From an uncultured Planctomycetia bacterium (GTDB lineage Bacteria; Omnitrophota; Gorgyraeia; Duberdicusellales; 4484-171), in assembly GCA_964536865.1 (NCBI GenBank), contig CAZHYN010000016.1:9305-41304 (forward strand): DNA of 32,000 nt, in the 5' to 3' direction. The translations under genes and the position numbers were made by a program. Positions within the stretch are counted from its first letter, which is position 1; each line of letters begins with the position of its first letter. Shown here one piece after another: positions 7,092 through 27,799 of the stretch. The notes beneath the pieces are model-generated. The model did no database searches, was not told the origin of the DNA, and saw nothing but the letters and a program-made list of their open reading frames with translations.

Positions 7092-7984
7092 AAAGATGGT
7101 CTTGGGATAGATTTCAGAATTTCTCTTTTATTTTCCCAGCTCTTGTTATATTTTCTATCTTTTATATTTACCCTTTTTTCTATACGTTTGTTCTTAGTTT
7201 TCAAGATTACGATTTTATCTCTACGCCAAAATTTATTGGTTTCAGCAATTTCCGTGAAGTTCTTACTGATAGAGAATGGTGGTCATCAATGTATAATGGA
7301 GCTTTTATTACCTTGTGGGCTTTAACTTTTCAGAATATTTTAGCATTTATGCTTGCTTTAGGGGTAGATAGAGTCATAAGGATGAATAAATTTTACCGAG
7401 TAGTATTTTTTATGTTACCTATTCTCTCAGAGATTATAATCGGCTTGCTTATGAAGCAACTTTTGAGTTCCGAACCTTTAGGTAGAGATATATTCAACCG
7501 CTGGATAACCAATTTAGGTTTAGGATTTTTTGCTCAAGACTGGTTAGGATCTCAGCGGGTAAGATTAGTTACTGCTTTGGTGCACTGCTGGAAAGGATTT
7601 GGCTGGGCATTTGTAATTTTCTTAGCGGGCCTTCAAAATGTTCCTCAACAGCTTTATGAAGCTGCCCGTATAGATGGAGCGAATGCCTGGCAGGTTTTTA
7701 GAAAAATTACTTTACCTTTACTTACTCCCGTAATTGCTCTGGTATTGGTTCTTACCATCTTGGGGACAATGCAAGCTTTTGCTATGATTCTTGCTTTAAC
7801 TGGAGGAGCAGGAGGATTAACTGAAGTTCCTGTTATGAGAATTTATAATCATTTAAGGTTTAGGTTAGCAGGATTAGCTTGTGCCGAGGGGGTAATTCTA
7901 GGTTTAATTTTAATAGTAGTTTCCTTCGGGATGTTTTTTATATCTAAGAAGATAAGAGAGAAATATGGGGTATTACCGAGCTAA
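7088..7984 (+). CDS. ABC sugar transporter permease (MalF/UgpA-like)
   Basis: Multi-pass membrane protein with EAA loop YEAARIDGANAWQVFRKITLPLL. ATGA overlap with the SBP gene. Confidence 0.88.
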   Translation: MKRWSWDRFQNFSFIFPALVIFSIFYIYPFFYTFVLSFQDYDFISTPKFIGFSNFREVLTDREWWSSMYNGAFITLWALTFQNILAFMLALGVDRVIRMNKFYRVVFFMLPILSEIIIGLLMKQLLSSEPLGRDIFNRWITNLGLGFFAQDWLGSQRVRLVTALVHCWKGFGWAFVIFLAGLQNVPQQLYEAARIDGANAWQVFRKITLPLLTPVIALVLVLTILGTMQAFAMILALTGGAGGLTEVPVMRIYNHLRFRLAGLACAEGVILGLILIVVSFGMFFISKKIREKYGVLPS

Positions 7985-8999
7985 GAAGATATTTATTTTA
8001 GTGCTTATTCATACCTTTCTTATGAGTGTGGCATTAAGCTGTCTCCTTCCTTTCTTCTGGATGGTTAATGTTTCCTTTAAGAGTCAAGAAGAATTTGATA
8101 AGGGTTATGTGGCTAAAAAAGCATTTTCTCCTCAACAGCTGGAAGAATTACTTGCAGATAAGATAGTGAAGGAAGCTAAATTTAACCGTAAGTTTCTAAT
8201 CTGGAATATTTCCACTGAAGATATGTTGATGGTGAAGTTGGCTCAGTCCAGAGTAGAAGATAGAGATAAAATCTTAAAAATATGGAGAAGAACTCGGGAC
8301 TATGGATTAAAGCCCCCTCTAAGTTTAAACTTGAGTAACTATAAAGAGGTTATATTCAGAGAGAAGTTTTGGTGTTACTTCTTAAATAGTGTTTTTTACA
8401 CTTTTGTTACTGTATGTTCTATCGTAATTATTTCTTCCCTTGCTGCTTATGCCTTTTCTCGTTTACACTTTCCCGGCAGAAACGTTATATTCTATATGTT
8501 CCTGGCAGCAATGATGATTCCTCTTCCTGCAGGTTTTGTTCCTGTATACGTACTGTTGAATAAATTTCATCTAGTAAACAGGACAGGGTATGTTTTGGCA
8601 ATGACCAACGTAGGTCTTTCTCTAAGTATCTATCTTTTAAAGACTTTTTTTGATCAGCTTCCTAAAGATTTAGAAGATGCTGCACGAATCGATGGATGCA
8701 ATAAACTCAGGATTTGGTGGAATGTTGGGTTACCTTTGGTAGCTCCCGCTTTAGGCGTAGTGATAATATTTAACGCTTTGAATGTATGGAATGAATTTGT
8801 ATTAGCTTCCCTTATGTTTACCGCTGAGGAGCTAATGCCTTTACAGGTAGGGTTGATGGAGTTTTCCAATCGCATGGTTACTCAACATACCTTAATTGCT
8901 TCTGCTCTAACAGTAGCTGCCTTACCTATAATTCTTCTCTATTTAAGACTTCAGAGGCAGTTTATTAAAGGCCTTACTGCGGGAGCAATGGTAGGATGA
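7965..8999 (+). CDS. ABC sugar transporter permease (MalG/UgpE-like) with an enlarged first periplasmic loop
   Basis: EAA loop EDAARIDGCNKLRIWWNVGLPLV. A charged insert of about 95 aa lies between TM1 and TM2. Confidence 0.85.
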   Translation: MGYYRAKKIFILVLIHTFLMSVALSCLLPFFWMVNVSFKSQEEFDKGYVAKKAFSPQQLEELLADKIVKEAKFNRKFLIWNISTEDMLMVKLAQSRVEDRDKILKIWRRTRDYGLKPPLSLNLSNYKEVIFREKFWCYFLNSVFYTFVTVCSIVIISSLAAYAFSRLHFPGRNVIFYMFLAAMMIPLPAGFVPVYVLLNKFHLVNRTGYVLAMTNVGLSLSIYLLKTFFDQLPKDLEDAARIDGCNKLRIWWNVGLPLVAPALGVVIIFNALNVWNEFVLASLMFTAEELMPLQVGLMEFSNRMVTQHTLIASALTVAALPIILLYLRLQRQFIKGLTAGAMVG

Positions 9000-13918: not shown

Positions 13919-14365
13919 ATGAAAGTATCTACAAAAGCTCGCTATGGGTTAAGGGCAATAATGGAGTTAGGGGCAAATTACTCTAAGAAGAGGCCCCTTC
14001 TCCTGAAAGAGATAGCAAAGAGACAGGAAATTTCTTTAAAGTATCTTGATCATATTTTTTCTCTTCTAAAGAAAATAGGGATAGTGAAAAGTGCTGGCAA
14101 AGGTAAAGGTTATATTCTTAGCAAAGCCCCTTCTCAGATAAAGGTTTGGGAGATAATAGAGGTATTGGAGGAGACTACTCTTTTGGATTGCTTAACTACC
14201 CCTAACTTGTGTAAAAAAGCACAATTTTGTGCTGCAAGAAGTTTATGGCGTAACTTAGCTAATAGTTTAAGAAGGAGTTTAGAGAATATCTCCTTAGAAG
14301 ATTTATTGAGAGAACAAGAGGATATTCTTAAAAGAGAAAATAAAAATGCAATGTACTACATCTAA
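13919..14365 (+). CDS. Rrf2-family transcriptional regulator with an IscR-like three-cysteine cluster-binding motif
   Basis: N-terminal [18 protein letters not shown] wHTH signature. C91-x6-C98-x5-C104 compares with IscR C92/C98/C104. Confidence 0.88.
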
Positions 14366-14382
14366 AATTTTGGGAGGCTGTG

Positions 14383-15306
14383 ATGGAGATAGCTAATAGC
14401 GTGATTGAATTAGTAGGTAATACCCCTCTGGTAAGATTAAATAAGATAGGTAAGGATTTGGATGTAGATTTAATAGCTAAATTAGAATTTTTTAACCCCC
14501 TTTCTAGTTTAAAAGATAGGATTGCTGTAGCTATGATTGAAGATGCAGAAAGAAAGGGAGTAATTAGAGAAGGGGCCACCATTATTGAACCTACTAGTGG
14601 TAATACTGGGATTGCCTTGGCTTTTGTATGTGCAGTAAAAGGCTACAGATTAATTATCACCATGCCAGAGTCAATGTCAGAAGAAAGAAAACGTTTACTT
14701 AAAGCCTTAGGAGCGGAGGTGGTACTAACCAAGAATAGAGAAGGAATGAAGGGGGCAATAAAGAAAGCCGAAGAACTTCTCAAAGAAATTCCCGACTCTT
14801 TTATGCCTCATCAGTTTAATAACTTGGCTAATCCCCATGCTCATTATAAGACTACGGGCGAGGAGATTTGGCAGGATACCCAAGGAAGGGTAGATATAGT
14901 TGTTGCTGGTGTGGGTACTGGAGGAACTATCACAGGTGTTGCTCAACTGATAAAGAAAAGAAAGAAGGAATTTAAGGCGATAGCAGTGGAGCCTCAAGAT
15001 AGTGCTATTCTCTCCGGGGGACATCCCGGGCTCCATAAAATTCAGGGAATTGGAGCAGGGTTCGTTCCTCAGGTTTTAAACTTAGATTTAATTGACGAGG
15101 TAGTAGCTGTATCTGACGAAGAAGCTGCCCAGTTAACTAGGCGATTGGCTAAAGAGGAGGGGATTCTTGCGGGAATATCTAGTGGGGCAGCAGTAGCTGG
15201 TGCTTTAAGAGTTGCTCAAAGAGAAGAGAATAAAGGGAAGTTAATAGTAGTTATACTTCCTGACACAGGAGAAAGATATCTTTCTACTTGGGTTTTTAAA
15301 GATTAA
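14383..15306 (+). CDS. cysK: Cysteine synthase A (O-acetylserine sulfhydrylase)
   Basis: PLP-lysine motif SSLKDR, substrate loop [12 protein letters not shown] and [13 protein letters not shown] at 14383 lies 5 nt after GGGAGG; a GTG at 14380 is also possible. Confidence 0.92.
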
Positions 15307-15340
15307 ACAAACTTCTATATAAGCAAATAAAAAGTTAGGT

Positions 15341-16270
15341 ATGGTTAGAGATACTTTGTTTACTGATGAAGAGAAGCTAAAAGAGGCAATTATAAGGTTG
15401 AAAAAGAAAAAAGAAGCTGTGATTCTAGCTCATAATTATCAGATATCCCAAATCCAAGATGTAGCCGACTTTGTAGGTGATTCCTTAGAATTAGCAAAAA
15501 TTTCTGCTAAAGTTGATGCTTCCTTAATAGTTTTTTGTGGAGTTTACTTTATGGGAGAGACTGCCAAGATTCTTTCCCCCCAAAAGAAGGTGCTTATTCC
15601 TGTAGCTAGTGCCGGCTGTCCACTAGCAGATACTATTATTCCTAAAAAACTTTTGGAGTTAAAGAATGTTTACCCGGAGGCGTGGGTGGTAAGTTATGTT
15701 AATACTTCCGCAGAGATTAAGGCGTTGACAGATGTCTGTTGTACTTCCAGTAATGCTGTCCAAGTAGTAAAAAATATTCCTGCTAAAAAAGTTATATTTG
15801 TTCCTGATAAAAACTTAGGATGGTGGGTTAAAAGAAATGTCCCTCAAAAAGAGATAATTCTCTGGGAAGGGTTTTGTTATGTGCATCAGAATTTTACCTT
15901 AGATGATTTACATAAGCTGAGGAGTAAATTTCCTCATGCGCAGGTATTTGTCCATCCTGAGTGTAAGCCAGAAATTTTACAAGACGCTGATTTAGTTTTG
16001 TCTACTTCAGGGATGCTAAGTGAAGCAAAAAAGTCATCAGCAAAAGAAATCATTATTGGAACTGAAGAGGGTTTAATTTACAGATTAAAGAAAGAAAATC
16101 CTGAGAAGAAGTTTTACCCTTTAAAGAAAGCTGAGTGTGTAGATATGAAGAAGATTACCTTAAAAGAGCTTTACTTAGCTTTAGAACACCAAAGATATGC
16201 TATAGAGTTGTCTCCCCAGATTATTCAAAGAGCTCAGAATTCTCTTAGGGAAATGATAAAGTATACCTAA
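15341..16270 (+). CDS. nadA: Quinolinate synthase
   Basis: ILAHNYQ, GDSLELA and FCGVYFMGETAKIL motifs, with the conserved Cys-containing segments typical of NadA; 309 aa. Confidence 0.9.
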   Translation: MVRDTLFTDEEKLKEAIIRLKKKKEAVILAHNYQISQIQDVADFVGDSLELAKISAKVDASLIVFCGVYFMGETAKILSPQKKVLIPVASAGCPLADTIIPKKLLELKNVYPEAWVVSYVNTSAEIKALTDVCCTSSNAVQVVKNIPAKKVIFVPDKNLGWWVKRNVPQKEIILWEGFCYVHQNFTLDDLHKLRSKFPHAQVFVHPECKPEILQDADLVLSTSGMLSEAKKSSAKEIIIGTEEGLIYRLKKENPEKKFYPLKKAECVDMKKITLKELYLALEHQRYAIELSPQIIQRAQNSLREMIKYT

Positions 16271-16275
16271 AATAA

Positions 16276-17172
16276 ATGAAGTGCAGAATATGTAAAAAGG
16301 AAGCCAACATAACTTTAAAGAGTTACAATCTAAATCTCTGTCCCGATTGTTTTTTAGAATTCTTTAGGAAAAGAGTATATACTACCATAAATGAGTTTAA
16401 AATGTGCACTCCTAAGGATAGGATTTTGGTTGCTGTATCAGGTGGAAAAGATAGTTTATCTTTATGGCACATTCTTAATGATTTGGGATACAGAACCTGT
16501 GGACTTCATATTGTCTTAGATATAGAAGAATATTCTCAAAAGTCTTATCAAAAGGTAATAAAATTTGCTCAAACTAAAGATTTGGAGATTAGGATAGTGA
16601 GTGTAAGGGATGAGTTCGGCAAGAGTATAAGAGAGCTTGCTAGGATAGCTAAACGTCTTCCTTGTAGAGTTTGTGGAATGATAAAAAGATATCTGATGAA
16701 TAGAGAGGCTAAGGATTTTGATTGTTTAGCTACCGGTCATAATTTAGATGATGAAGCCAGCACTCTCTTAGGGAATCTCCTTAACTGGCAGGAAGGATTC
16801 TTAACTCGGCAGTCTCCGGTTTTGGAAGAAAATTATACTCTCAAGAGAAAAATTAAACCTTTTGCTTTTATTTCTCAAGAAGAAATTGCTCTGTATGCTG
16901 AGTTATGTGGTATAGATTATCTAAAAGAGGAGTGTCCTTTTTCTAGAACAGCTACTTCTTGTATCTACAAAGGAGTTCTGGATAAGATTGAGGAGGAGAT
17001 GCCTGCAACTAAGTTAAGATTCTATAAGGGATTTATTAGGAAGGAATATTTCAAGAGAGAGAAGAAGGATAAACTCTCTCCTTGTAAAAGTTGTGGTTAC
17101 CTCACAATAGGGGAAGTTTGTAATTTCTGTAAGTTAAAGGAGAAAGTTTTAGAGGGAGAAGGTTCTTATTAA
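16276..17172 (+). CDS. ttuA: TtuA/Ncs6-type PP-loop tRNA 2-thiolation enzyme (predicted [4Fe-4S]-dependent)
   Basis: N-terminal Zn finger CRIC...CPDC, PP-loop VAVSGGKDSLS, central PCRVCG plus ECPFS cysteines, and C-terminal Zn finger CKSC...CNFC. Confidence 0.75.
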   Translation: MKCRICKKEANITLKSYNLNLCPDCFLEFFRKRVYTTINEFKMCTPKDRILVAVSGGKDSLSLWHILNDLGYRTCGLHIVLDIEEYSQKSYQKVIKFAQTKDLEIRIVSVRDEFGKSIRELARIAKRLPCRVCGMIKRYLMNREAKDFDCLATGHNLDDEASTLLGNLLNWQEGFLTRQSPVLEENYTLKRKIKPFAFISQEEIALYAELCGIDYLKEECPFSRTATSCIYKGVLDKIEEEMPATKLRFYKGFIRKEYFKREKKDKLSPCKSCGYLTIGEVCNFCKLKEKVLEGEGSY

Positions 17173-17183
17173 AGGAGGGGACG

Positions 17184-17957
17184 ATGTTGGAAGAGATAAC
17201 TATCTCAAGAGCAATCATTGATTCTTATTGGAAGAAACTCGGTAAAATTTTGGAAGTGGATGTGGCTATCTGTGGTGCCGGGCCTTCGGGATTAGTTTGT
17301 GCAACCACATTAGCTAAGAAGAAGAGAAAGGTAGTAATATTTGAGAAGAAGCTTTCTATTGGTGGAGGGATGTGGGCAGGAGGTATGTTTTTTAACGAAA
17401 TTGTAGTCCAAGCATCAGGCAAGAAGATTTTAGAGGAGTATAAAGTGAGACTAAGAAAGTATAAAAAGGAATATTACCTTGCTGATGCTATTGAATGCGT
17501 ATGTAGTTTAGGATATCATGCTGTTAAATCAGGAGTAATTATTATTAATGGAGTATCTGTTGAGGATGTTGTAATAAGAAAGAACAGGATTTGTGGGGTA
17601 GTGATAAATTGGTCAGCAGTTGAACTGACTAATTTAGACGTTGATCCTTTAGCAGTGAGAGCTAAATTTGTTGTAGATGCCACAGGACACTCTTCAGATG
17701 TGGTGAGGATTGTGGAAGAGAAGAGTGGGTTGAAACTTAATACTGAGATTGGGAAAAGAGTTGGAGAAAGGTCTATGTGGGCGGATTTGGCAGAAAGTAT
17801 GGTGGAAAAGAATACTCAAGAGGTTGTTCCAGGCTTAGTAGTAGCAGGGATGTGTGTCAATGCTGTATTTGGTTCACCACGGATGGGACCTATCTTTGGG
17901 GGGATGCTTCTTTCAGGGAAAAAAGCGGCAGAAATCATTCTTTCTAAGATTAAATGA
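17184..17957 (+). CDS. thi4: Thiazole synthase Thi4 family (archaeal-type, probably sulfide-dependent)
   Basis: Dinucleotide fold DVAICGAGPSGL, then GGGMWAGGMFFN and VVDATGHSSDV. That segment has no Cys where eukaryotic suicide Thi4 carries ..CGH... Confidence 0.85.
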   Translation: MLEEITISRAIIDSYWKKLGKILEVDVAICGAGPSGLVCATTLAKKKRKVVIFEKKLSIGGGMWAGGMFFNEIVVQASGKKILEEYKVRLRKYKKEYYLADAIECVCSLGYHAVKSGVIIINGVSVEDVVIRKNRICGVVINWSAVELTNLDVDPLAVRAKFVVDATGHSSDVVRIVEEKSGLKLNTEIGKRVGERSMWADLAESMVEKNTQEVVPGLVVAGMCVNAVFGSPRMGPIFGGMLLSGKKAAEIILSKIK

Positions 17958-17981
17958 TTTAAACTTATATTTTAATTACAA

Positions 17982-19028
17982 ATGGATAGAGAGAGAATAG
18001 CTGTGGCTTTAAGTGGAGGTGTTGATTCTGCATATTCTGCTTACCTTCTTAAGAAAGAAGGGAAGGAGCTGGTAGGAGTAACTTTTAAACTTTCTTTCTT
18101 TAAAGAGGAAAATATTCGAAAAGCACAGTATGTATGTAACTTTTTGGGAATTCCCCATCATCTAATTGATGTTAACCAAGAGTTTAAGAATATTATAGAT
18201 TACTTTGTCAGCTCTTACTTAGACGGTTTAACCCCTAACCCTTGCGCTTTATGTAATCAAATCATTAAGTTCGGAAAACTCTTAGATTATATACGTATGT
18301 TAGGTTGTTATTATTTAGCTACCGGGCATTACTGTCGACTAATTAAAACTGAAAAAGGTGAAATATACTTAGCTAAAGGAAGGAGTATGTTTAAGTCTCA
18401 AGAGTACTTTTTGGCATTAACTCCTAAAGAGAAGTTTAATTCAGTAATTTTCCCTCTAGGAGACTATACTAAAGAGGAGGTTAAAAGGAATATTCAAAAG
18501 GAAGGGTTTTACCCTTTCCCTATCGAAGAGAGTAAAGAGGTGTGTTTTATAGGGAATAGTACCTATAAGGATTTTATTAGAAAACGTATCTTAAGAGATG
18601 GTGATTATTCGGGACAGATAAAGCATCATAATGGGAAAGTCTTAGGAACTCACCAGGGAGTTTATTTTTTTACCTATGGACAAAGAGAGGGATTGGGGGT
18701 TTCTTGGAGAAAGCCTTTGTATGTAATGGACATCCTTCCTTCAAAAAGAGAAGTGATTGTAGGAGAGAGAGAGTTTATTCTAAAGGAGCGTTTCTTTGTA
18801 AACCACATAAATTGGTTTTACCCTCCTTCTAATTATCGGAATTTGAGAGTTAAGCTTCGTTATAACTCCTACTCTTTACCTTGTGATATAGAAATTTCTT
18901 CTCATAATCGGATTCTGTGTATTTTAAAAGACAAAAGAGAAATTCCTGCTCCGGGGCAGTTAGCTGTTTTCTATGATAGAGATTTAGTAGTTGCTGGAGG
19001 ATTAATTGAGAAAGAAAGTGCTTCTTAA
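17982..19028 (+). CDS. mnmA: tRNA-specific 2-thiouridylase
   Basis: PP-loop IAVALSGGVDSAY, catalytic-Cys contexts NPCALCNQ and EVCFIG, and ATGHY. Confidence 0.9.
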   Translation: MDRERIAVALSGGVDSAYSAYLLKKEGKELVGVTFKLSFFKEENIRKAQYVCNFLGIPHHLIDVNQEFKNIIDYFVSSYLDGLTPNPCALCNQIIKFGKLLDYIRMLGCYYLATGHYCRLIKTEKGEIYLAKGRSMFKSQEYFLALTPKEKFNSVIFPLGDYTKEEVKRNIQKEGFYPFPIEESKEVCFIGNSTYKDFIRKRILRDGDYSGQIKHHNGKVLGTHQGVYFFTYGQREGLGVSWRKPLYVMDILPSKREVIVGEREFILKERFFVNHINWFYPPSNYRNLRVKLRYNSYSLPCDIEISSHNRILCILKDKREIPAPGQLAVFYDRDLVVAGGLIEKESAS

Positions 19029-19077
19029 GAAAAACTGAAGCGGTAGATTTGGAAGGGTTTGTCCCTGCAGGATTAAG

Positions 19078-20064
19078 ATGAAGGCAGTCTCTCTATTCTC
19101 AGGAGGTTTAGATAGTATTTTAGCTACCAAAATTATAAAGGAGATGGGTATAGAGGTAGAAACTATACACTTTTGGAGTTTATTTTCCCCTGCCACCTAC
19201 CAAGAGACAGTTAAAAAGTTATCATTTTTTACAGAGAAACTAGGGGTTTCCCTTCATATAGAAGATATAACTCTTCAGCTCTTAGAAAAGGTAAAAAACC
19301 CTCGCTATGGCTACGGGAGTTGTCTTAATCCTTGCATCGATTGTAAGATTTTAATGTTTAGGAGGGCAAAAGAGTATATGGAAGATGTAGGAGCGAAGTT
19401 TTTGATAAGTGGGGAAGTATTAGGAGAACGTCCTTTCTCTCAGAGGAGAGGGGCTTTAGCGATAATAGAGAGAGAAGCTTCAGGGGAAGGAATAATTTTG
19501 AGACCTTTATCTGCAAAATTGCTAAAGTCAACTATTCCTGAGAATAAAGGATGGGTTAAGCGGGATAAACTTTTTGCTATAAAAGGAAGTAAGCGAAGAC
19601 CCCAGATAGAGTTAGCAAGAAAATTGAAGATTTACTCTTATCCTTCTCCTGCAGGAGGATGTCTCCTTACCGACAAAAATTTCTCTAAAAAATTGCAGGA
19701 TTTATTTTCTTACTCTAAAGATTTTGGAGTAAGAGATGTATTTCTTCTTAAGATAGGAAGACACTTTCGCCTCTCCCAGAGAGGGAAGTTGATCGTTCCT
19801 CGCAACGAGAGAGAGGAGCAGAGACTATTAGAGAAGAAGGAGGAAGCAGATACCTTATTTGTCCCTTTAGATGACGGAAGAAGATGTTTAGGAGTGGGGT
19901 CGTTAGATACTGATGATATCCAGTTAGCTACTCGGATAGTTGCTTCATATGTTAAGAGAGACTCTTATCCTAAGAAAATAAGGGTTATCTCTTTCTGGGG
20001 AGAGAAGGAATTAGAGGTAAACCCTTTATCCTCTCAGGAGTTAGAGAGTCGACGAATAAGTTAG
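19078..20064 (+). CDS. Orphan PP-loop (adenine nucleotide alpha-hydrolase) protein, ThiI/MnmA-related, no THUMP or rhodanese domain
   Basis: PP-loop AVSLFSGGLDSILA, Cys cluster CLNPCIDC plus downstream GGC, ThiI-like GEVLGERPFSQ, and a ~130-aa C-terminal region I cannot assign. Confidence 0.65.
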   Translation: MKAVSLFSGGLDSILATKIIKEMGIEVETIHFWSLFSPATYQETVKKLSFFTEKLGVSLHIEDITLQLLEKVKNPRYGYGSCLNPCIDCKILMFRRAKEYMEDVGAKFLISGEVLGERPFSQRRGALAIIEREASGEGIILRPLSAKLLKSTIPENKGWVKRDKLFAIKGSKRRPQIELARKLKIYSYPSPAGGCLLTDKNFSKKLQDLFSYSKDFGVRDVFLLKIGRHFRLSQRGKLIVPRNEREEQRLLEKKEEADTLFVPLDDGRRCLGVGSLDTDDIQLATRIVASYVKRDSYPKKIRVISFWGEKELEVNPLSSQELESRRIS

Positions 20065-20090
20065 GTAAAATTTATTTTTTTCTTGAGAAA

Positions 20091-20119
20091 TGGACAAATT
20101 AGTGGTATTATTCTATAAT
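20091..20119 (+). promoter_or_regulatory. Sigma-70-type promoter for the HD-GYP gene
   Basis: TGGACA (20091-20096), 17-nt spacer, TATAAT (20114-20119). A GAAGGAG SD precedes the ATG at 20138. Confidence 0.5.
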
Positions 20120-20137
20120 TATCGGTAAGAGAAGGAG

Positions 20138-21658
20138 ATGGGAGAAGGTAAGATTTTAATTATTGATAATGATGTTGAGTTTCCACAGAAGCTAAGTAGC
20201 TTCCTAAAAGAACAGGGTTATATTCTTCATGTTTATCAAGAAAGTAGAAAAGGTTTAGATGCTTTCCTTAAGGAAGAGTTTGATGTGGTGATGGTAGAGC
20301 TAGCTATGCCTCAAATGAATGGGATCGAGGTTATAGAGGAGATTAAAAAAATTGATCCCGAAAGTATAACTATTATTATGACTACTCAACCTTCTCTGGA
20401 GACAGTTCAAAGAGCAATAAGAGCAGGGGCATTTGACTATATTACCAAGCCTTTTAGTAAAGAGGAAATCTCATTCGTAATGAAAAGAGCACTTGCCTTT
20501 CGCAATTTAAGTGTAGCTAGAAGGAAACTTATGGAGGAGTTAGAGAAACAGAATGTAAGGTTAGAGCGCCAGATTAAAGAAAAGACAAAAGAGTTAGCTC
20601 TTATATACCAAGTAGGTAGAGATATTTCCTCCACACTGAACTTAGAAGAAATTTTAGAGATTATCTTAGATAGAGTGTGTGTAGTATTGAACATAGAAAA
20701 ATGTTCTATTCTTCTATTGGATGAGGGTAAGGGAGAGTTATATATAAGAGCTGCTCGAGGTCTATCGGAGGATGTTATAATTCAAACAAGACTTAAAGTA
20801 GGTGAGCCTATCTCTGGATGGGTACTTAAAAATAAGAAGCCCGTGTTTGTAGAAGACATAGAGAAAGATCCTCGTTTTGCTCGAAGAAACTATGAGAGGT
20901 ATTATACACACTCTTTTATCAGTGTGCCTTTGATAGTGAAAGAAGATGCTATTGGGGTGATAAATGTGAATAATAAGAAAACAAGACAGCCTCTCACTGA
21001 GGATGATTTCAGAATCGTGAAAGGAATAGCTAACAAGGCATCTATAGCTGTAGAGAATGCCCGTCTTTATTCTACCTTGGAAGATAGTTATATTCGAACA
21101 GTCACTGCTCTTACTTCAGCAATTGATGCTAAGGATCATTATACTAAGAGTCATTCAGAACATGTTTCTCAGTATGCGGTAGCTATAGGGAGGGAGATGG
21201 GTTTATCAGACCGTGAGATTGAAGAAATTCGTCAAGCTTGTCAACTTCATGATTTAGGAAAAATTGGAGTCCACGATTATATTCTTACTAAACCTGGCAA
21301 ACTTACTCCTGAGGAGTGGGAGGAGATAAAACAGCATTCCTTAAAAAGTGCGGAGATATTGAAGCCTCTAATTTTCTTAGGAGGAGCTATTGATTTGATA
21401 AGGCAGCATCACGAGAGGTATGATGGGAAGGGGTATCCTTACGGTCTTAAAGGCGAGGAAATAAAGCTAGGAGCAAGGATAATAGCAGTAGCTGACAGTT
21501 TTGACGCTATGACTACCGATAGACCTTATCGTCGAGCACGCACTAAAGAAGAAGCCATTGAGGAAATTAAAAAATGTAGTGGCACCCAGTTTGATCCTAA
21601 AGTTGTAGAAGCTTTTTTAAGGATAGTGGACAAACTTCCTCCTAAACCCAAAAAGTAG
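20138..21658 (+). CDS. REC-GAF-HD-GYP protein (RpfG-like c-di-GMP phosphodiesterase) with an atypical receiver
   Basis: The receiver fold (ILIIDND...VVMVELAMPQMNG...IIMTT...YITKPF) has Glu54 at the acceptor position. A GAF-like middle region follows. The HD-GYP core is intact: HDLGKIG and HHERYDGKGYP. Confidence 0.88.
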   Translation: MGEGKILIIDNDVEFPQKLSSFLKEQGYILHVYQESRKGLDAFLKEEFDVVMVELAMPQMNGIEVIEEIKKIDPESITIIMTTQPSLETVQRAIRAGAFDYITKPFSKEEISFVMKRALAFRNLSVARRKLMEELEKQNVRLERQIKEKTKELALIYQVGRDISSTLNLEEILEIILDRVCVVLNIEKCSILLLDEGKGELYIRAARGLSEDVIIQTRLKVGEPISGWVLKNKKPVFVEDIEKDPRFARRNYERYYTHSFISVPLIVKEDAIGVINVNNKKTRQPLTEDDFRIVKGIANKASIAVENARLYSTLEDSYIRTVTALTSAIDAKDHYTKSHSEHVSQYAVAIGREMGLSDREIEEIRQACQLHDLGKIGVHDYILTKPGKLTPEEWEEIKQHSLKSAEILKPLIFLGGAIDLIRQHHERYDGKGYPYGLKGEEIKLGARIIAVADSFDAMTTDRPYRRARTKEEAIEEIKKCSGTQFDPKVVEAFLRIVDKLPPKPKK

Positions 21659-21663
21659 CTTGC

Positions 21664-21888
21664 CTACCATCTCCACAGAATTAAGAGAGTAAAGGAAATT
21701 ACTACAATTATTGTTGTCCACACCATCCACTTAGCCTTTGCTGGAGATGGTAGACTTTTTCCACAGTAAAGACAGATGGTAGCGTTATGAGGAATGGGTT
21801 TTCTACAGTAAGGACACTTCTTAAGCTGTGAGAAGTCCAGTTTCTCTTCTTCTACTACTTCTTGGAAGGGAAAATACTCTTCATTCAT
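21664..21888 (-). CDS. Small zinc-ribbon protein with acidic N-tail and C-terminal transmembrane helix
   Basis: CPYC-x13-CLYC zinc ribbon followed by WMVWTTIIVVISFTLLILW. It has no SD, but a good promoter lies immediately upstream. It is the only minus-strand gene. Confidence 0.55.
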   Translation of the reverse strand: MNEEYFPFQEVVEEEKLDFSQLKKCPYCRKPIPHNATICLYCGKSLPSPAKAKWMVWTTIIVVISFTLLILWRW

Positions 21889-21902
21889 CGTCTATAATAA
21901 GT

Positions 21903-21930
21903 AGTATACAACTTTTTTCTCTTGTATCAA
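21903..21930 (-). promoter_or_regulatory. Candidate promoter for the minus-strand zinc-ribbon gene (very short leader)
   Basis: On the minus strand: TTGATA (+ coords 21930-21925), 16-nt spacer, TATACT (21908-21903). The ATG at 21888 lies about 8 nt beyond the expected start site. Confidence 0.4.
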
Positions 21931-21988
21931 TAGGTATTTACCTTTGAGGTATTTTTTATATAATTAATTAAAGAAAGAGAGATAGTCT

Positions 21989-23017
21989 ATGAGGGAAAGG
22001 AAGTTTATAGATTTATCTATGATCTCTGAAGAGGAACTTCTCAATTTAAAAATCTGTGATCTTCCTCTAAAAATAGAGGGTACATGGCTCCAAGGATGTG
22101 TAGAGCAGCTCTATCAGGAGTTAGAGAAGAAAGGAATAAAATTTAAGCCTCCCTGTTACTTGGCAGACGAGTGGCTTACTCCTGACGGTGAACCGGTAAT
22201 AGGTATCCCTTTTTTCTTAGCTCATCCTACACTTATGAAATTAGAGAAAAAGATGATGCTTGATGTAGAAGGAGAAACTAAGGGCTGGTGTATGAAACTG
22301 TTGCGTCATGAAAGCGGCCATGCTATAAACTATGCCTATAGGTTGTATAGACGGAGAAAGTGGCAGAAAATTTTTGGAAAGTTTTCCCAAGTTTACTCAG
22401 ATACTTACCGTTTCCGTCCTTATAGTAAAAGTTTTGTACGCCATCTAGAGGATTACTACGCTCAGTATCATCCCGATGAAGATTTTGCGGAAACTTTTGC
22501 TGTTTGGCTTACTCCCGGTTCTAATTGGCAGGAGGCTTATAAGGGATGGAAGGCCTTAGAGAAGTTAAATTATGTAGAGGAATTAATGGAAGAAATAAAG
22601 GAAAAGCCACCTCTCGTTAAACGAGGGAGAAGGTATTGGCATATTAATTCCTTAAGAATCACTCTTAAAAATTATTATAAGAAAAAAAGGCTCTACTATG
22701 CAGAGTATTTTCCTGATTTTCACGATGTAAATCTAAAGAAGATATTTGCAGAAAAAAATCTTCATTCTCAAGAAGGGTTATCTGCTAAGGATTTAATAAA
22801 GAGATATAGGAAGCAAATTCTAAATAATGTTTCTGAATGGACTGGAGAGAAAAAGTACGTAATTGCCGACCTTTTAGATACTATAGGGGAAAGATGTGAT
22901 AGTCTTAACCTTAGGATAATTGAGTCGGAGAGTTCCGCTCTTCTTAAATTTTCTACCTATATTACTACTCTCATTATGAATTATCGTTATACAGGGAGAT
23001 TTCAAAAGACAAAATGA
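21989..23017 (+). CDS. Putative zinc metallopeptidase (zincin HExxH), otherwise uncharacterised
   Basis: HESGH at aa 107-111, with downstream acidic YHPDEDFAETFAVW (aa 160-173) as the candidate third ligand. No signal peptide. The C-terminal ~140 aa carry no recognisable motif. Confidence 0.7.
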   Translation: MRERKFIDLSMISEEELLNLKICDLPLKIEGTWLQGCVEQLYQELEKKGIKFKPPCYLADEWLTPDGEPVIGIPFFLAHPTLMKLEKKMMLDVEGETKGWCMKLLRHESGHAINYAYRLYRRRKWQKIFGKFSQVYSDTYRFRPYSKSFVRHLEDYYAQYHPDEDFAETFAVWLTPGSNWQEAYKGWKALEKLNYVEELMEEIKEKPPLVKRGRRYWHINSLRITLKNYYKKKRLYYAEYFPDFHDVNLKKIFAEKNLHSQEGLSAKDLIKRYRKQILNNVSEWTGEKKYVIADLLDTIGERCDSLNLRIIESESSALLKFSTYITTLIMNYRYTGRFQKTK

Positions 23018-24030
23018 GGAGGAGATTAAAAGTTTTGTTAGTATTTGATACGCCTTATCATACGCCTCGAGGTTATAACTTTGAAAAGGAGTTTAAAGAG
23101 CTTGACTGGGTAACAGAGAGAGACGTTTATTCAGCTCTCTTAGAGAACGGTTATGATGTTATTCTCTTGGGGCTCTATGATGATATAAAATTACTCTTTG
23201 AGGAAGTGAAAGAAAATAAACCTGAGGCTATTTTCAATCTTACTGAGGTATTTAAGCAGAAAACTTATTTAGAAAAGAATGTAGCCTGGATTTTAGAAAT
23301 TCTGGGTATTCCTTATACTGGTGCTACTCCAACTAGTCTTCTTATCTGTAATAATAAAGCTCTAACTAAAAAGATACTGACCTTTCATAAGATTCGTGTT
23401 CCCAATTTTTATACATTTTATAAGCATCGCAAGGTCAAATTTATCCGGAGGTTAAAACTTCCTCTCATCGTAAAGCCTCTGTATGAGGAAGCTTCACGGG
23501 GGATATCTCAAGCTTCGGTAGTTGATAGTGAGGAAGGATTAATTGAGCGAGTAAAATTTATCCACACTCACCTCAATATGGATGCTATTGCTGAGGAGTA
23601 CATTGATGGGAGAGAGCTTTACGTGAGTGTATTAGGGAACAAGCGGATAAAAGTTTTACCTTTTAGAGAGATGAAATTTGGTAAGATTCCTGAAGATGAA
23701 CCTCGTATTGCTACTTACAAGGCTAAGTGGGATTATAGATATCGGGAAAAGTGGGAAATTAAAAATGTTTTTGCTGGTAGATTACCTTCAGGGTTGGATA
23801 AGAAAATTATCGAAATTTGCAAACGTGCTTATCGAGCTCTTAATATGCAATGTTACGCTCGCTTCGATATAAGGATTACATCTCAAGGAGAAGTTTATAT
23901 TATTGAAGCAAATGCTAACCCCTGTTTGGGTAGAACTGATGAGCTTGCTCAATCAGCAGAAAAAAGTGGTATTAGTTATAATAAGCTAATTCAAAAGATA
24001 ATAAACCTTGCTCTAAAGAGGCCAGTTTAA
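23014..24030 (+). CDS. D-alanine--D-alanine ligase-like ATP-grasp ligase (non-housekeeping context)
   Basis: ATP-grasp motifs LPLIVKPLYEEASRGIS, AEEYIDGRELYVSVLG and RFDIRI...YIIEANANP. ATGA overlap with the peptidase gene. Confidence 0.85.
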   Translation: MRRRLKVLLVFDTPYHTPRGYNFEKEFKELDWVTERDVYSALLENGYDVILLGLYDDIKLLFEEVKENKPEAIFNLTEVFKQKTYLEKNVAWILEILGIPYTGATPTSLLICNNKALTKKILTFHKIRVPNFYTFYKHRKVKFIRRLKLPLIVKPLYEEASRGISQASVVDSEEGLIERVKFIHTHLNMDAIAEEYIDGRELYVSVLGNKRIKVLPFREMKFGKIPEDEPRIATYKAKWDYRYREKWEIKNVFAGRLPSGLDKKIIEICKRAYRALNMQCYARFDIRITSQGEVYIIEANANPCLGRTDELAQSAEKSGISYNKLIQKIINLALKRPV

Positions 24031-24495
24031 ATATTATCCTGAAGTTCCCCCAAAATTTAGACATCCTTTTGTCTAACAGTATATGATTCAGTAAGATAAG
24101 AAAATTGAAATCTGCGCTTTTTAGAAAAATATTTTTGTTGTAAAAATAGGAAAGAGTTTTCCCAAAATTTTGAAAGGCTAATATAATATTTTCAATACCT
24201 TTAGAAAAGCCAACTTTACAAAAGATGCACTTTTAAGAAGAAATGAGTTCCCCTGGCCATATTTAAAAATATAGGCCTGAGAAATGATTGGGATACCTGA
24301 ATCTGAATAATTATCATGTGCGTTTGTAAAGCACGAATAGGTGGTTAGAGTAAGACTCTATTGATAAGATATTTTTAGCAAGAAATTAACTATTGACAAA
24401 CTCTTTCATAGGCGGGAAAACCCCAGTAAAATATTATCTTTTTGTTCTCACTATTTATGATATAATAATGTAGCTAATTACAAATTTGAAGAAAT

Positions 24496-25908
24496 ATGTT
24501 TAGAGAATTCCTTAATTTTCTTCCTGATATAGTTTACCTTAAAGATTACGAAGGCAGATACTTATGGGCTAATAGAACCTTTCTACAGTTTTTTGGGAAA
24601 GAAGAGAAAGAGGTAATAGGTAAGGTAGATAGCGAAGTTATTCCTCAAGAGCTTGCTGTTCAGTGGCAGACTTCAGATAGAGAAGTTATTTCTCTTAAGA
24701 AACCAATTATAAGAGAGGAACATTTAGGAGAAATTATTTTTGAAACGATGAGGTTCTTGGTTCCCCTTAGTGAAGGGAAAATAGGAGTTGCGGGATACTC
24801 TCGTGATGTAACTCTTCACAAGAAAATGGAAGAGAGTTTGAAAGCAAGTGAGGAGAAGTATCGAATCATTGCTGAGAATGTGAATGACATAATTTGGGGT
24901 ATAGATATGGACTTAAGAGTTGTCTATATAAGTGCTTCTTTGGAACACATTTTGGGGTATAAACCGGAGGAATTGATAGGTAAAAGTTTAGAGGAGATAT
25001 TGCCCCCAGGGGAATATAAGAAAATGAAAAAAATTCTGGAGGAAGAGTTGACTCGAGAGGAAGAAAAAGGAACAGACAAATTGCGTTCGAGGACTTTTGA
25101 GATTAAGTATATTCATAAAAGTGGTCACCCTGTATTGTTGGAGGTTAAAGCTAATTTTATCCGTAACCAAGACGGTGTTCCTACTGGTATTTTAGAAGTG
25201 GCTCGAGATGTCACCCAAAGGAAGGAGATGGAGGAGACTCAGCGGCTTTCTCAATTAGGTAAGCTTGTTGCTGATATTGCTCATGAAGTAAATAATCCTC
25301 TTATGATTATTTCAGGGAGGGCTCAACTTGCTCTTATGGAGGAAATATCTGATCCAGAGGTTAAAAAGACTCTAGAGATTATCCTAATTGAATGTCAGAG
25401 AGTAAAGGATATTATCCAGAGAATTCTCAGATACTCTCGTCCTGGTAAGGGTGAATTTAAAGAGCTCAATATAGAAAGAGTTATAGAGGATGTAGTTGCA
25501 ATTTTGGAACACCAGTTTCAATTAGTTAATATCTCCATAGTAAGAAACTATACTCCTAACTTACCCCAGGTATGGGCGGATGATAAGCAAATTGAAGAAG
25601 TGCTGATGAACCTATTGATTAATGCTAGAGATGCTATGCCTGAGGGAGGAAAAATAGAGATAAGTACATCTTCTCAGGATAATTTCTTAAGAATAGATAT
25701 AAAAGATACAGGTACAGGTATGAGTAAAGAAGTTCTAGATAGGATATTTGAACCATTTTTTTCTACTAAGAAGAGAGGCACAGGATTAGGTGTCTCTATA
25801 TGTTATAATATAATAAAAGCTCACAAAGGAGAGTTGAAGTTCGTAAGTGCCCCCGGGAAGGGTACTACTGTTACTATACTTTTACCTTTTTTGAAAAAAG
25901 ATGGCTAA
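24496..25908 (+). CDS. Soluble PAS-PAS histidine kinase
   Basis: Two PAS-like regions, H-box ADIAHEVNNPL, N-box LLINARDAM, G1 DIKDTGTGM and G2 GTGLGVS. No TM segments. Confidence 0.9.
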   Translation: MFREFLNFLPDIVYLKDYEGRYLWANRTFLQFFGKEEKEVIGKVDSEVIPQELAVQWQTSDREVISLKKPIIREEHLGEIIFETMRFLVPLSEGKIGVAGYSRDVTLHKKMEESLKASEEKYRIIAENVNDIIWGIDMDLRVVYISASLEHILGYKPEELIGKSLEEILPPGEYKKMKKILEEELTREEEKGTDKLRSRTFEIKYIHKSGHPVLLEVKANFIRNQDGVPTGILEVARDVTQRKEMEETQRLSQLGKLVADIAHEVNNPLMIISGRAQLALMEEISDPEVKKTLEIILIECQRVKDIIQRILRYSRPGKGEFKELNIERVIEDVVAILEHQFQLVNISIVRNYTPNLPQVWADDKQIEEVLMNLLINARDAMPEGGKIEISTSSQDNFLRIDIKDTGTGMSKEVLDRIFEPFFSTKKRGTGLGVSICYNIIKAHKGELKFVSAPGKGTTVTILLPFLKKDG

Positions 25909-26278
25909 GATTTTAGTTATTGATGATGAGCATCAGATTTTAGATATTTTGGAGAGATTTCTAACTAAGATGGGGTTTCAAGTTATTACTGCCTTGGGAG
26001 GAGAAGAGGGAATAAAAGCAATTAATTCTCAGGATGTGGATCTTATTCTCTTAGATATGAAGATGCCTAAAGTAACAGGAATTGATGTATTGAAAGAATT
26101 AAAAGAGAGAGAAAAGAAGGTTCCTGTTATTATTTTAAGTGGTTCTTTAGGGGTAGTAAGAGAAGTCCATCTTCTAGAAGAGTTAGGGCATACTCAGGAA
26201 GATATTGTTACCAAACCTATAGACCTTTTTAATCTCCTAGAAAAAGTTAGGAGCAAATTACCTAGAGAGATTGTTTAG
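25901..26278 (+). CDS. Single-domain response regulator (CheY-like receiver)
   Basis: ILVIDDE, LILLDMKMP, IILSGS and VTKPID: all canonical receiver residues. 8-nt overlap (ATGGCTAA) with the kinase gene. Confidence 0.9.
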   Translation: MAKILVIDDEHQILDILERFLTKMGFQVITALGGEEGIKAINSQDVDLILLDMKMPKVTGIDVLKELKEREKKVPVIILSGSLGVVREVHLLEELGHTQEDIVTKPIDLFNLLEKVRSKLPREIV

Positions 26279-26283
26279 CTTCT

Positions 26284-27060
26284 ATGGGGCAGAGGGTTTT
26301 AATTGTAGATAGTGACATAGAGGCACGCAATACTTTTTATGAGATACTTTCTTCCTTAAATTATGAGCCTACCTGTGTACCCACAGCTAAAGAAGCTCTA
26401 AACAGACTTACTGAGGAGAGGTTTGATCTTATCATTTTAGAGAGAGATATGCCTGATTTAGATGGGGTAGATATTGTCAGGAAGATAAGGGAATTTGATA
26501 AGGATACTAAGATTGTGTTACTCTCTCGAGAAGATCCAGAAAGATCTATTTTATCTTTAGCTCATCAGTTAAATATCCAGAGGGTGTTAAAAAAGGACTT
26601 CTCTACTCATATGATGATGAGAGATATACTAGGTACTTTAAGAGAAAAGCGCTCATCTCCTCAACCTTCTTCTCTTTTTAAAAATTTCTCTATTCTCATA
26701 GTTGATGATAATCCTCAGGTAAGAGAAACTCTTCAGATTTTCCTAGAGAAAAAGGGTTTTAAAGTTCTAACAGCATCTTCCGGAGAAGATGCTGTTATGA
26801 AAGTGAAGCTGGGGGAGCCTAAGGTAGTTATTTTGGATATAAGGATGCCAGGAATGGATGGGGTAGTAGTGTTAAGAAATATAAAACAACTCAATCCTTC
26901 TATCAAAGTGATCGTGCTTACTTCAGTTAGAGATGATTATATCATGAAGGAAGCTCGGCGAGAAGGAGCTTCTGAGTATTTGGTTAAACCTTATGATCTT
27001 GAAAAATTAGATAATATAATTACTTCTTTACTTTTACAAAAAAGGAGTGAAGATGGATAA
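26284..27060 (+). CDS. Dual-receiver protein (degenerate REC + canonical REC), no output domain
   Basis: REC1 is VLIVDSD...LIILERDMPDLDG, with Glu53 at the acceptor position. REC2 is ILIVDDN...VVILDIRMPGMDG...VLTS...LVKPYD, which is canonical. Confidence 0.88.
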   Translation: MGQRVLIVDSDIEARNTFYEILSSLNYEPTCVPTAKEALNRLTEERFDLIILERDMPDLDGVDIVRKIREFDKDTKIVLLSREDPERSILSLAHQLNIQRVLKKDFSTHMMMRDILGTLREKRSSPQPSSLFKNFSILIVDDNPQVRETLQIFLEKKGFKVLTASSGEDAVMKVKLGEPKVVILDIRMPGMDGVVVLRNIKQLNPSIKVIVLTSVRDDYIMKEARREGASEYLVKPYDLEKLDNIITSLLLQKRSEDG

Positions 27061-27799
27061 GAAAATCTTAGTCGCTGAAGGTGAAGTGGGAATTCGTCAA
27101 CAATTCTATGATAGTTTAACGCATGCAGGTTATAAAGTAGTAACTACTCATCACGGAAAGCATGCATTCGAACTATTTACTACTCAGAAGCCAGATTTAG
27201 TGCTTCTAGATTATGCTCTTTCTGATGAAAGTGGTATTGAGGTACTTAGGAAAATAAAAGAGATAGATAAAAAAGCAAAAGTAGTTATGCTTGGTAGTCC
27301 TGTTGAATCAGAGTTAGAGAAGGAAGCACGACTATTAGGAGCTAGTGGTTTTCTTCCTAAAAGTTTAGAAGGAGGAGCTATTGTTGAAGCAGTTGATCGG
27401 ATAATGGGAAAATCAATCGAGGAGAGAAAAATTCTAGTAGTCGATGATGATTCTCAAATTTGCTCTCTCATAGAAGATTTCTTAACGAAAAAAGGATTCA
27501 GAGTAATCGTTGCCTATAGTGGTGAGGAGGGTTTGGAGAAATTTAAAAAAGAGAGACCAATTTTGGTTCTTCTTGATGTAAGGTTACCAGGTATGGATGG
27601 GATAATGACTCTAAAACGAATTAAAGAGATTGACCCCCGAGTAGGAGTAATTATGGTAACCGGCCTAAAAGATGAAGATACCTTTAATGAAGCAAAGAAA
27701 TTAGGTGCTCACGAGTATGTGGTGAAACCTTTTGATTTAGATTATTTAGATACCTGTGTCCTTGTACGTCTGTGTCTTGTTTCAGCTCTTTTAAGATAA
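27053..27799 (+). CDS. Dual-receiver protein (degenerate REC + canonical REC), paralog of 26284-27060
   Basis: REC1 is ILVAEGE...LVLLDYALSDESG: the acidic pair is lost and the acceptor Asp is kept. REC2 is ILVVDDD...LVLLDVRLPGMDG...MVTG...VVKPFD. ATG at 27053 follows AAGGAG and gives an 8-nt ATGGATAA overlap; the track's GTG at 27047 is less likely. Confidence 0.88.
   Translation: MDKKILVAEGEVGIRQQFYDSLTHAGYKVVTTHHGKHAFELFTTQKPDLVLLDYALSDESGIEVLRKIKEIDKKAKVVMLGSPVESELEKEARLLGASGFLPKSLEGGAIVEAVDRIMGKSIEERKILVVDDDSQICSLIEDFLTKKGFRVIVAYSGEEGLEKFKKERPILVLLDVRLPGMDGIMTLKRIKEIDPRVGVIMVTGLKDEDTFNEAKKLGAHEYVVKPFDLDYLDTCVLVRLCLVSALLR

Follow-up and report, generated by a model that had tools for sequence, protein, structure and literature searches.

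Operons in which an ATP-grasp peptide ligase stands beside a peptidase are a known theme of comparative genomics, which has predicted them to be makers of new metabolites or of protein tags, and few of them have been solved. Iyer and colleagues are said, in work of 2009, to have linked such peptide ligases with several peptidase folds. Here we describe one such pair from a 32,000-nucleotide stretch of the genome of an uncultured Omnitrophota bacterium (contig CAZHYN010000016.1; the whole stretch is referred to as the window), in which the gene of a predicted zinc metallopeptidase overlaps that of an ATP-grasp ligase with the fold of D-alanine–D-alanine ligase (Ddl). Each protein belongs to a known superfamily; the distinctive features are a Ddl-fold ligase without the D-Ala site, a lethal-factor-like zincin and a basic domain specific to the ligase-linked peptidases. 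A full-text literature search, which did not cover Iyer et al. 2009, found no paper on the pair.

The ligase has the three-domain ATP-grasp fold and the residues for ATP, Mg and acyl-phosphate in common with Ddl and the VanA/B/G ligases, but it is only ~20–25% identical to them, the residues of their D-Ala site are replaced, and it is paired with a zincin outside any cell-wall gene context. The peptidase shares HExxH and the signature Y-A-x-S/Q-x-P-x-E-D-x-A-E with Peptidase_Mx (PF15887; solved protein 4l7a, BACCAC_01431) and TIGR04549; the likeness to Peptidase_Mx covers ~70 residues and is borderline (25.9 bits for the window protein, 27–47 bits for its relatives). Members of TIGR04549, the SusCD-associated zinc metallohydrolases of Bacteroidetes, are secreted lipoproteins linked to TonB-dependent transporters, whereas the peptidase described here is predicted to be cytosolic, is linked to an ATP-grasp gene, and differs from both families in its N-terminal part and in its basic C-terminal domain. 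Anthrax lethal factor (M34, ATLF), with its cytosolic relatives of MtfA type, is the other known group close to it, and the best fold matches of the peptidase, weak as they are, are to lethal factor. HExxH is followed by a Tyr and, seven residues on, by a Glu inside an E-x-F-A-E helix, an order that is presumably that of lethal factor, from which the peptidase departs in having no significant global similarity, no secretion signal and a different accessory domain, and in not being a toxin.

Enzymes that add and enzymes that remove are also found together elsewhere, in systems that resemble this locus by analogy only. RimK (with RimB), TTL with carboxypeptidases, and LysX/LysW/LysK each combine an ATP-grasp ligase, adding amino acids to the C-terminus of a protein or to a carrier, with a removing peptidase; the tails concerned are acidic, and a basic domain would be well matched to their recognition. 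Unlike the pair, they use another ATP-grasp branch and peptidases of the retropepsin, M14 and M20 types, and no carrier or target gene is linked to the pair. Glutathionylspermidine and trypanothione synthetase-amidases keep an amide-forming enzyme and the hydrolase of the same bond together at a fixed ratio, in one fused chain with a CHAP cysteine peptidase and another ATP-grasp branch, where the window has separate genes and a zincin; the conflict between synthesis and hydrolysis in trypanothione synthetase-amidase is settled by regulating the hydrolase (PMC2427367).

A translationally coupled gene pair conserved across phyla

The two genes lie on the forward strand of the window (Table 1) and are named in an exact-sequence look-up as 'hypothetical protein' (peptidase) and 'ATP-grasp domain-containing protein' (ligase). 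The original prediction, made from the letters of the sequence, had proposed a HExxH metallopeptidase with HESGH at aa 107–111 and HPDEDFAETF at aa 161–170, and a Ddl-like ligase whose start overlaps the peptidase stop in an ATGA; the coordinates of both open reading frames (ORFs), the motifs and the overlap all agree with the sequence.

Peptidase is followed by ligase in 79 of 80 genome loci from Omnitrophota and from Bradyrhizobium, Afipia and Xanthobacteraceae, the remaining locus ending inside the peptidase gene. Identity is 61–92% for both proteins within Omnitrophota, and 45–48% (peptidase) and 40–44% (ligase) in Bradyrhizobium, Afipia and Xanthobacteraceae. The pair is also present in Vicinamibacterales (Acidobacteria) and Nitrospirae, and homologs are named from Gemmatimonadetes and Methylomirabilales as well. 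Another 90 loci (80 metagenomic, 10 viral) yielded the adjacent pair in 74, a split ligase in one, a reversed gene order in one and a cut-off locus in six; the reversal is the only one among ~155 loci. For the 80 metagenomic loci taken alone, the ligase comes after the peptidase in ~75. The spacing from stop to start is −4 nt in 94 of 153 loci, with overlap of any length in 101 and a distance of at most 20 nt in 142, so that the predicted translational coupling is a conserved property and no accident of the window genome. The peptidase and the ligase also evolve in step, and between the same pairs of genomes both are 66–68% identical, against 45–47% for the syntenic MnmA and 58–65% for NadA, which points to an unusually strong constraint on the pair.

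Both families are large. Clustering at 90% leaves at least ~8000 homologs of the peptidase. An exhaustive search gave 2218 representative clusters for it at 50% identity, almost all of full length and 621 with E-values below 1e-30; the ligase too has thousands of full-length homologs. Given these numbers for both proteins and the recurrence of the pair across phyla, their association is not due to chance, and the two genes are a conserved, self-contained module of at least six bacterial phyla. The pairing is genuine, and conserved far beyond the window genome. Of the three findings that the original prediction had named as refuting it, none came up: adjacency is conserved in related genomes, the HExxH protein is without a solved or named close relative, and the ligase does not appear to be a cell-wall Ddl.

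Table 1. Features of the peptidase-ligase locus and of the zinc-ribbon genes found beside it. Positions are those of the window unless another locus (L number) is given.
Feature	Position	Strand	Description
Peptidase gene	21989..23017	+	342-aa ORF, first gene of the pair; predicted cytosolic gluzincin
Catalytic zincin domain, aa 1-205	21989..22603	+	Proposed from invariant residues and weak fold matches
HESGH motif (H107, E108, H111)	22307..22321	+	Zinc-binding/catalytic motif, read from sequence
YAQYHPDEDFAETF motif, aa 157-170	22457..22498	+	Y157 predicted transition-state Tyr, E164 predicted third zinc ligand
C-terminal all-helical domain, aa 206-342 (137 aa)	22604..23014	+	Strongly basic; in the ligase-linked family only
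ATGA stop/start overlap	23014..23017	+	Ligase ATG overlapping peptidase TGA; translational coupling
Ligase gene	23014..24030	+	338-aa ORF, second gene of the pair; predicted Ddl-fold ATP-grasp carboxylate-amine ligase, not Ddl
Promoter-like site TTTACC, 16-nt spacer, TATAAT	21937..21964	+	Consensus scan 10/12; pattern match alone
Zinc-ribbon ORF	21664..21888	-	74 aa; CPYC and CLYC; C-terminal hydrophobic helix; acidic N-tail
HD-GYP response regulator	20138..21658	+	Pfam HD_5, Response_reg, GAF
Zinc-ribbon family members	window 21664-21888 (-); L001 2557-2778; L002 151-321; L096 2127-2336		Small Omnitrophota family
Second zinc-ribbon ORF	L003 8109-8342; L004 ~8074-8301; L006 8056-8286	+	Unrelated to the first

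The ligase has a Ddl fold and an altered substrate site

The ligase matches PF07478 (Dala_Dala_lig_C) with 95.1 bits (cut-off 24) and PF02655 with 36.8 bits (cut-off 23.2), in addition to a weak and partial Pfam match to RimK (19.9 bits). Its AlphaFold2 (AF2) model (predicted local distance difference test, pLDDT, 88.3; predicted template modelling score, pTM, 0.88) has the three-domain ATP-grasp fold and 802 matches in the PDB at E <= 0.001, the best of which are Ddl structures (3r5x, 8evx, 1iow; template modelling score, TM, 0.76–0.87, 20–25% identity). Against the Ddl models of NCBIfam it nevertheless scores far under the cut-offs, with 132.1 bits against 243 for NF002378 and 110.5 against 245.65 for TIGR01205, and all 25 listed Ddl and Van models give 44–132 bits versus cut-offs of 243–1015.

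Ligases of four phyla were aligned with E. coli DdlB, the sequence of which is identical to that of PDB 2dln/1iov, for a comparison of residues. Ligase residues K115, K154, E194, E201, K238, R283, D285, E298 and N300 are invariant over the four phyla and retain the DdlB residues for ATP, Mg and acyl-phosphate (K97, K144, E180, E187, K215, R255, D257, E270 and N272). The substrate side of the site is another matter. DdlB E15 becomes F27, with loss of the GGxSxE motif and a 12-residue insertion in its place; H63 becomes F80, with loss of HGxxGEDG; S150 becomes A160; Y216 becomes W239 (H in Bradyrhizobium), in a lid that is five residues longer; and a conserved acidic pair, D309/E310, stands where DdlB has S281/L282. 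We take E15, S150 and Y216 of DdlB to clamp the free ammonium of substrate 1, and S281 and L282 the free carboxylate of substrate 2, the substrate roles of E15, H63, S281 and L282 being assumed from the DdlB structure. Ser150 and Tyr216 are the residues conserved in those Ddls that produce D-Ala-D-Ala only (PMC7691350).

To judge from this alignment, the ligase appears to have lost both the free-ammonium and the free-carboxylate clamp, which makes two free alpha-amino acids, bound as in Ddl, unlikely as its substrates. Because it scores below every Ddl cut-off and the residues that bind D-Ala are replaced, the ligase is, by its sequence, not the housekeeping D-Ala-D-Ala ligase, as had been supposed from its surroundings: mur and fts genes are absent from the flanks of the pair in 156 loci and from the ORFs of the window scanned from 13919 to 27796. 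The 'Ddl-like motifs' attributed to it need dividing, in that the generic ATP-grasp catalytic residues are there and the Ddl-specific substrate residues are absent.

The peptidase weakly resembles lethal factor and carries a basic domain

The sole Pfam match of the window peptidase is Peptidase_Mx, at aa 105–175, with 25.9 bits under a cut-off of 27 and spanning ~70 of the model's 236 positions. The same model is matched at E <= 1 by all 33 diverse relatives, the eight tested all score 27.6–47.1 bits, and PF15887 is the precomputed Pfam label of most homologs. Peptidase_Mx1 is matched by 22 of the 33 relatives and ATLF, the anthrax lethal factor family, by eight (best E-value 3.8e-4), the window protein itself having no ATLF match. 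TIGR04549 gives 22.6 bits, below its cut-off of 75; no signal peptide or lipobox is present in the sequence, and the recurrent neighbours of the pair include no TonB-dependent transporter gene. Longer members of the family carry no additional Pfam domain.

Invariance within the family was read from two alignments, of 33 diverse and of 70 further homologs, sampling the 2218 clusters. In the first, W62, P74, R106-H107-E108, H111, F129-G130, Y157, Q159, H161-P162, E164-D165, E168 and F170 are invariant; HExxH, the downstream Glu (E164; also E168), R106, Y157, Q159, H161-P162, D165 and F170 are kept in both. The motif YAQxHPxEDFAETF aligns with YAgSkPsEDiAE of 4l7a, the solved Peptidase_Mx protein, in a marginal profile match, and the spacing of seven between Y157 and E164 is, we assume, that of Y728 and E735 in anthrax lethal factor. 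The AF2 model of the peptidase (pLDDT 86.8) is weakly similar to the lethal factor catalytic domain in Foldseek (probability 0.8–0.92 over ~122 columns, E-values 0.13 or worse, TM 0.21–0.26) and weakly also to 4l7a, and its top match in a viral-structure library is a phage 'lethal factor' fragment. None of the fold matches in the PDB or the viral library is significant, and there is no sequence match among solved structures. By sequence and, weakly, by fold, we classify the peptidase as a gluzincin of anthrax-lethal-factor/Peptidase_Mx type with a predicted complete set of catalytic residues; its description as an uncharacterised zincin stands, since we found no solved or named close relative.

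The C-terminal ~140 residues, left unassigned by the original prediction, indeed match nothing in Pfam, nor do they match the PDB, and no recurrent Pfam match appears there in the 33 members. The AF2 model places helices at aa 226–335. This domain has an isoelectric point above 9 in 163 of 164 homologs. Over a range of G+C content from 0.39 to 0.68, all well-sampled clades have a net charge of +9 to +14 in it, the exception being one clade with a single locus; in the catalytic domain and in the ligase, by comparison, the sign of the charge differs from clade to clade. The domain is missing exactly from the homologs without a ligase. Eight of the ten homologs on viral contigs consist of the catalytic domain only, fused to other domains, with neither the C-terminal domain nor the ligase, and this joint absence indicates that the domain goes with the ligase.

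These ligase-less genes lie on phage-like IMG/VR contigs. In L086 (4560–6236) the zincin domain is part of a 558-aa protein with a superoxide-dismutase-like C-terminal part (a match to Sod_Fe_C in Pfam, 50 bits); in L091 (4539–5708) it follows an N-terminal region that is HAD-like by eye, without a Pfam match. The others are L087–L090, L092 and L094.

Genomic context of the pair

Neighbouring genes were compared by all-against-all clustering in 80 and then in 156 loci, the latter from 11 peptidase clades, and no neighbour gene family occurs in more than three of the 11. The pair is surrounded by housekeeping genes, which in Omnitrophota are nadA and mnmA, in Bradyrhizobium lgt, prs and a YfiH-like gene, and in Acidobacteria that of an M50-CBS protease. 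Small ORFs (15–100 aa) within 500 bp of the pair show no conservation between clades, no Rfam match lies 5' of it in the window or in 12 loci, and neither PADLOC (anti-phage defence) nor plasmid matches were obtained. With these last two negative and a context that is housekeeping and partly syntenic, an anti-phage or mobile role is disfavoured.

The zinc-ribbon membrane protein beside the pair had been considered a possible partner. Its CPYC/CLYC ribbon and C-terminal helix, its divergent orientation 100 bp from the peptidase start and the 5 bp between its stop and that of the HD-GYP response regulator are as first read; the promoter-like site is within the same 100-bp region, 5' of the peptidase gene. 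As a partner it did not hold up. Homologs adjoin the pair only in L001 (76% identity) and L002 (47%), the closest loci, and in no other phylum; in L096 one lies 2.7 kb away. Since the adjacency is confined to the closest relatives, we place the protein outside the system of the pair. A small ORF with CxxC...CxxC occurs within 1.5 kb of the pair in six of 83 loci (four in Omnitrophota, two in Bradyrhizobium, none in other phyla), and the two long Bradyrhizobium ORFs look spurious. In three Omnitrophota loci a second, unrelated zinc-ribbon ORF of ~76 aa (FSATHLYC..CKASMPVREVLLLVLP..YDYRCL.CG) stands directly 3' of the ligase and has the same orientation. That two different zinc-ribbon genes are found beside one pair may be chance.

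The remaining surroundings are clade-specific. In the window, a forward-strand run of sulfur, thiolation and cofactor genes 5' of the pair (13919–20064) comprises an Rrf2 regulator, a pyridoxal-phosphate-dependent (cysteine-synthase-like) enzyme, NadA, Thi4, MnmA, a TtuA-like PP-loop tRNA 2-thiolase and a ThiI-like PP-loop protein that carries an NFACT-R_2 RNA-binding domain. Synteny of NadA and MnmA with the pair extends to ~8 other Omnitrophota loci, with no functional link evident. Signalling elements related to cyclic di-GMP (c-di-GMP) recur around the pair in Omnitrophota. The window has the HD-GYP response regulator on the 5' side of the pair and, on the 3' side, a PAS histidine kinase and several receiver proteins (24496–27799, forward strand), and c-di-GMP-I riboswitches occur in L013 (12189–12275, +) and L096 (8114–8251, −), the latter before an RlpA-like lipoprotein gene (7606–8088, minus strand) and not before the pair. 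A ~200-aa lipoprotein with the carbohydrate-binding domain CBM_11 (Pfam, 72 bits) is encoded directly 5' of the pair in nine of 23 Omnitrophota genome loci (e.g. L005 4920–5528) and is absent from the window and from other phyla. In Bradyrhizobium, the gap between prs and the peptidase gene holds a conserved stretch of ~160 nt (L027 5740–5898 and 24 other loci), the translation of which reads as a repeat-element artefact (…TLRESNSHRPRGDSPSPHPLS…) and which may be either a regulatory region or an element repeated between genes.

Possible functions of the pair

The reading that we tentatively favour is that the pair forms a cytosolic writer and an eraser or trimmer of a short amino-acid or peptide tail, carried by a conserved target that is acidic or associated with polyanions. 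The ATP-grasp ligase would phosphorylate a carboxylate and couple it to an amine, forming an amide bond. Its clamps having apparently been lost, at least one substrate, and probably both, would be something other than a free alpha-amino acid, more probably a terminus or side chain belonging to a peptide or protein, or an amine lacking a carboxylate. The lethal-factor-like gluzincin would hydrolyse the same kind of bond, trimming or removing what the ligase adds and thereby determining how long the modification is or at what steady-state level it is kept. The basic helical domain would tether the two enzymes to a partner of polyanionic nature, be it an acidic protein tail, a poly-acidic peptide, RNA, the ribosome or another polyanion, and may also dock the ligase. 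Writer and trimmer would be analogous to RimK or TTL ligases with their tail-trimming peptidases. Speaking for this are two enzymes that are both catalytically complete by their residues, a coupled message and a co-occurrence that involves no other partner. The original prediction had offered peptide tagging and removal, or turnover of a small peptide; to this our analysis adds two constraints, the clamps lost from the ligase and the basic domain of the peptidase, under which either may hold. A narrower version, that the pair is a bacterial protein-tail modification system so far unrecognised, in which a Ddl-fold writer puts one or more amino acids on a conserved cellular protein that is acidic or associated with RNA (for instance a ribosomal or translation-linked one) and a lethal-factor-like zincin eraser, kept on the target by its basic domain, trims them, we consider unlikely.

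Several points weigh against a writer and trimmer. That both enzymes work on one and the same bond, or bind each other, is an assumption of this reading. The characterised enzymes closest in fold, Ddl and the Van ligases, all use small free substrates, and the lid (omega) loop of the ligase, retained and even lengthened, suits a small substrate at least equally. A ligase and an opposing hydrolase made at a fixed 1:1 ratio would burn ATP unless regulated, and no regulator is visible around the pair. The basic domain might do no more than bind the membrane, or the ligase itself, which in several clades is acidic. The roles of DdlB E15, H63, S281 and L282, finally, are assumed.

Some of the same observations would suit a small-molecule synthetase and amidase. 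The ligase would then link a common acid (an amino acid or small peptide) with an amino acid or small amine to give, for instance, a dipeptide osmolyte, a storage compound or a polyamine conjugate, and the zincin would degrade this product. We regard this as possible, if rather unlikely. Synthetase and amidase for one metabolite are kept together in trypanothione synthetase-amidase (PMC2427367). The nearest solved folds are all small-substrate ligases with the lid loop that is kept here, the acidic D309/E310 in place of the carboxylate-binding S281/L282 would suit an amine without a carboxylate, and the absence of a linked carrier or precursor gene means that the substrates must be common constituents of the cell. 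Further models would be glutathionylspermidine synthetase-amidase, N-acetylglutaminylglutamine amide (NAGGN) synthetase with its peptidase, and cyanophycin synthetase with cyanophycinase. Yet a small metabolite leaves a 137-aa, invariably basic domain with no obvious role, no transporter, regulator or biosynthetic gene is linked to the pair in any clade, so high a sequence conservation is unusual in an accessory metabolite pathway, and HExxH gluzincins of lethal-factor type are known as peptidases of peptide chains. The futile cycle would vanish if the steps were consecutive, with the peptidase cleaving a precursor and the ligase coupling the exposed carboxylate or amine to a second molecule, as LdcA and then Mpl do in the recycling of peptidoglycan peptides, or as in leader removal followed by ligation. 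Fixed-ratio co-translation, a peptidase-then-ligase order with one reversal in ~155 loci, and active sites that are intact by residues in both proteins agree with such a sequence of events. Gene order by itself is weak evidence on reaction order, however, neither a precursor gene nor a conserved small ORF is close by, and no cell-wall or salvage genes are linked; we hold this to be improbable.

The other explanations fare worse. That the peptidase is non-hydrolytic in vivo, a regulatory or substrate-recruiting subunit that presents a polyanionic target to the ligase through its basic domain, would account for the co-occurrence of that domain with the ligase and for its conserved charge; the invariance of H107, E108, H111, Y157 and E164 over the 2218 clusters, as sampled in the two alignments, would be unexpected in a pseudo-enzyme, and this very improbable explanation was rejected. 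A second, Ddl- or VanA-like ligase acting with a VanX-like dipeptidase to remodel D-Ala-D-Ala termini would follow the logic of van operons, which combine a ligase with a zinc dipeptidase, and the best sequence and fold matches of the ligase are after all Ddl and Van ligases. Against it are the replaced E15-S150-Y216 triad, H63 motif and S281, scores that stay at 44–132 bits under family cut-offs of 243–1015, the absence of mur, fts and van genes near the pair in every clade, and a peptidase that is a lethal-factor-like HExxH enzyme and not of the M15 VanX type; the scores and the lost substrate residues led us to reject a housekeeping or Van-type Ddl, and a role in cell-wall dipeptides is now hardly credible. 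LysW, a small and acidic carrier with a zinc ribbon that serves LysX (ATP-grasp) and LysK (metallopeptidase), invites the thought that the zinc-ribbon protein makes the locus an amino-group carrier system, or else a graspetide-like pathway for peptides made on the ribosome and modified after translation (RiPPs) with a precursor peptide. The acidic-tailed 74-aa protein diverging from the pair in the window and the second zinc-ribbon ORF 3' of the ligase in L003, L004 and L006 lend it what appeal it has, which is lost on closer view: homologs of the former stand beside the pair in L001 and L002 alone, its acidic tail is N-terminal, not C-terminal, and accompanied by a membrane anchor, conservation across clades is seen for no small ORF, and the ligase is of Ddl type, not of RimK/LysX or MdnC type. 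The distribution of zinc-ribbon and small ORFs caused us to discard a LysW-like carrier or RiPP cluster, the chances of which we rate as minimal.

Significance

To date the two proteins have been named only 'putative zinc-binding metallopeptidase' and 'ATP-grasp domain-containing protein'. The pair is unusually clean, being made up of two genes with coupled translation in thousands of genomes of at least six phyla, and within Omnitrophota it is more conserved than nearby enzymes of tRNA modification and NAD synthesis. Its presence in Bradyrhizobium, which is culturable and genetically tractable, makes its function directly testable. If the pair does prove to be a protein-tail system, bacteria of at least six phyla would have in it a counterpart to the tyrosination/glutamylation cycle of tubulin. 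Solving it would give a function to the large family of 'putative zinc-binding metallopeptidases', would correct the label 'D-alanine--D-alanine ligase' that the ligase bears in some databases, and might uncover a new modification cycle or metabolite.

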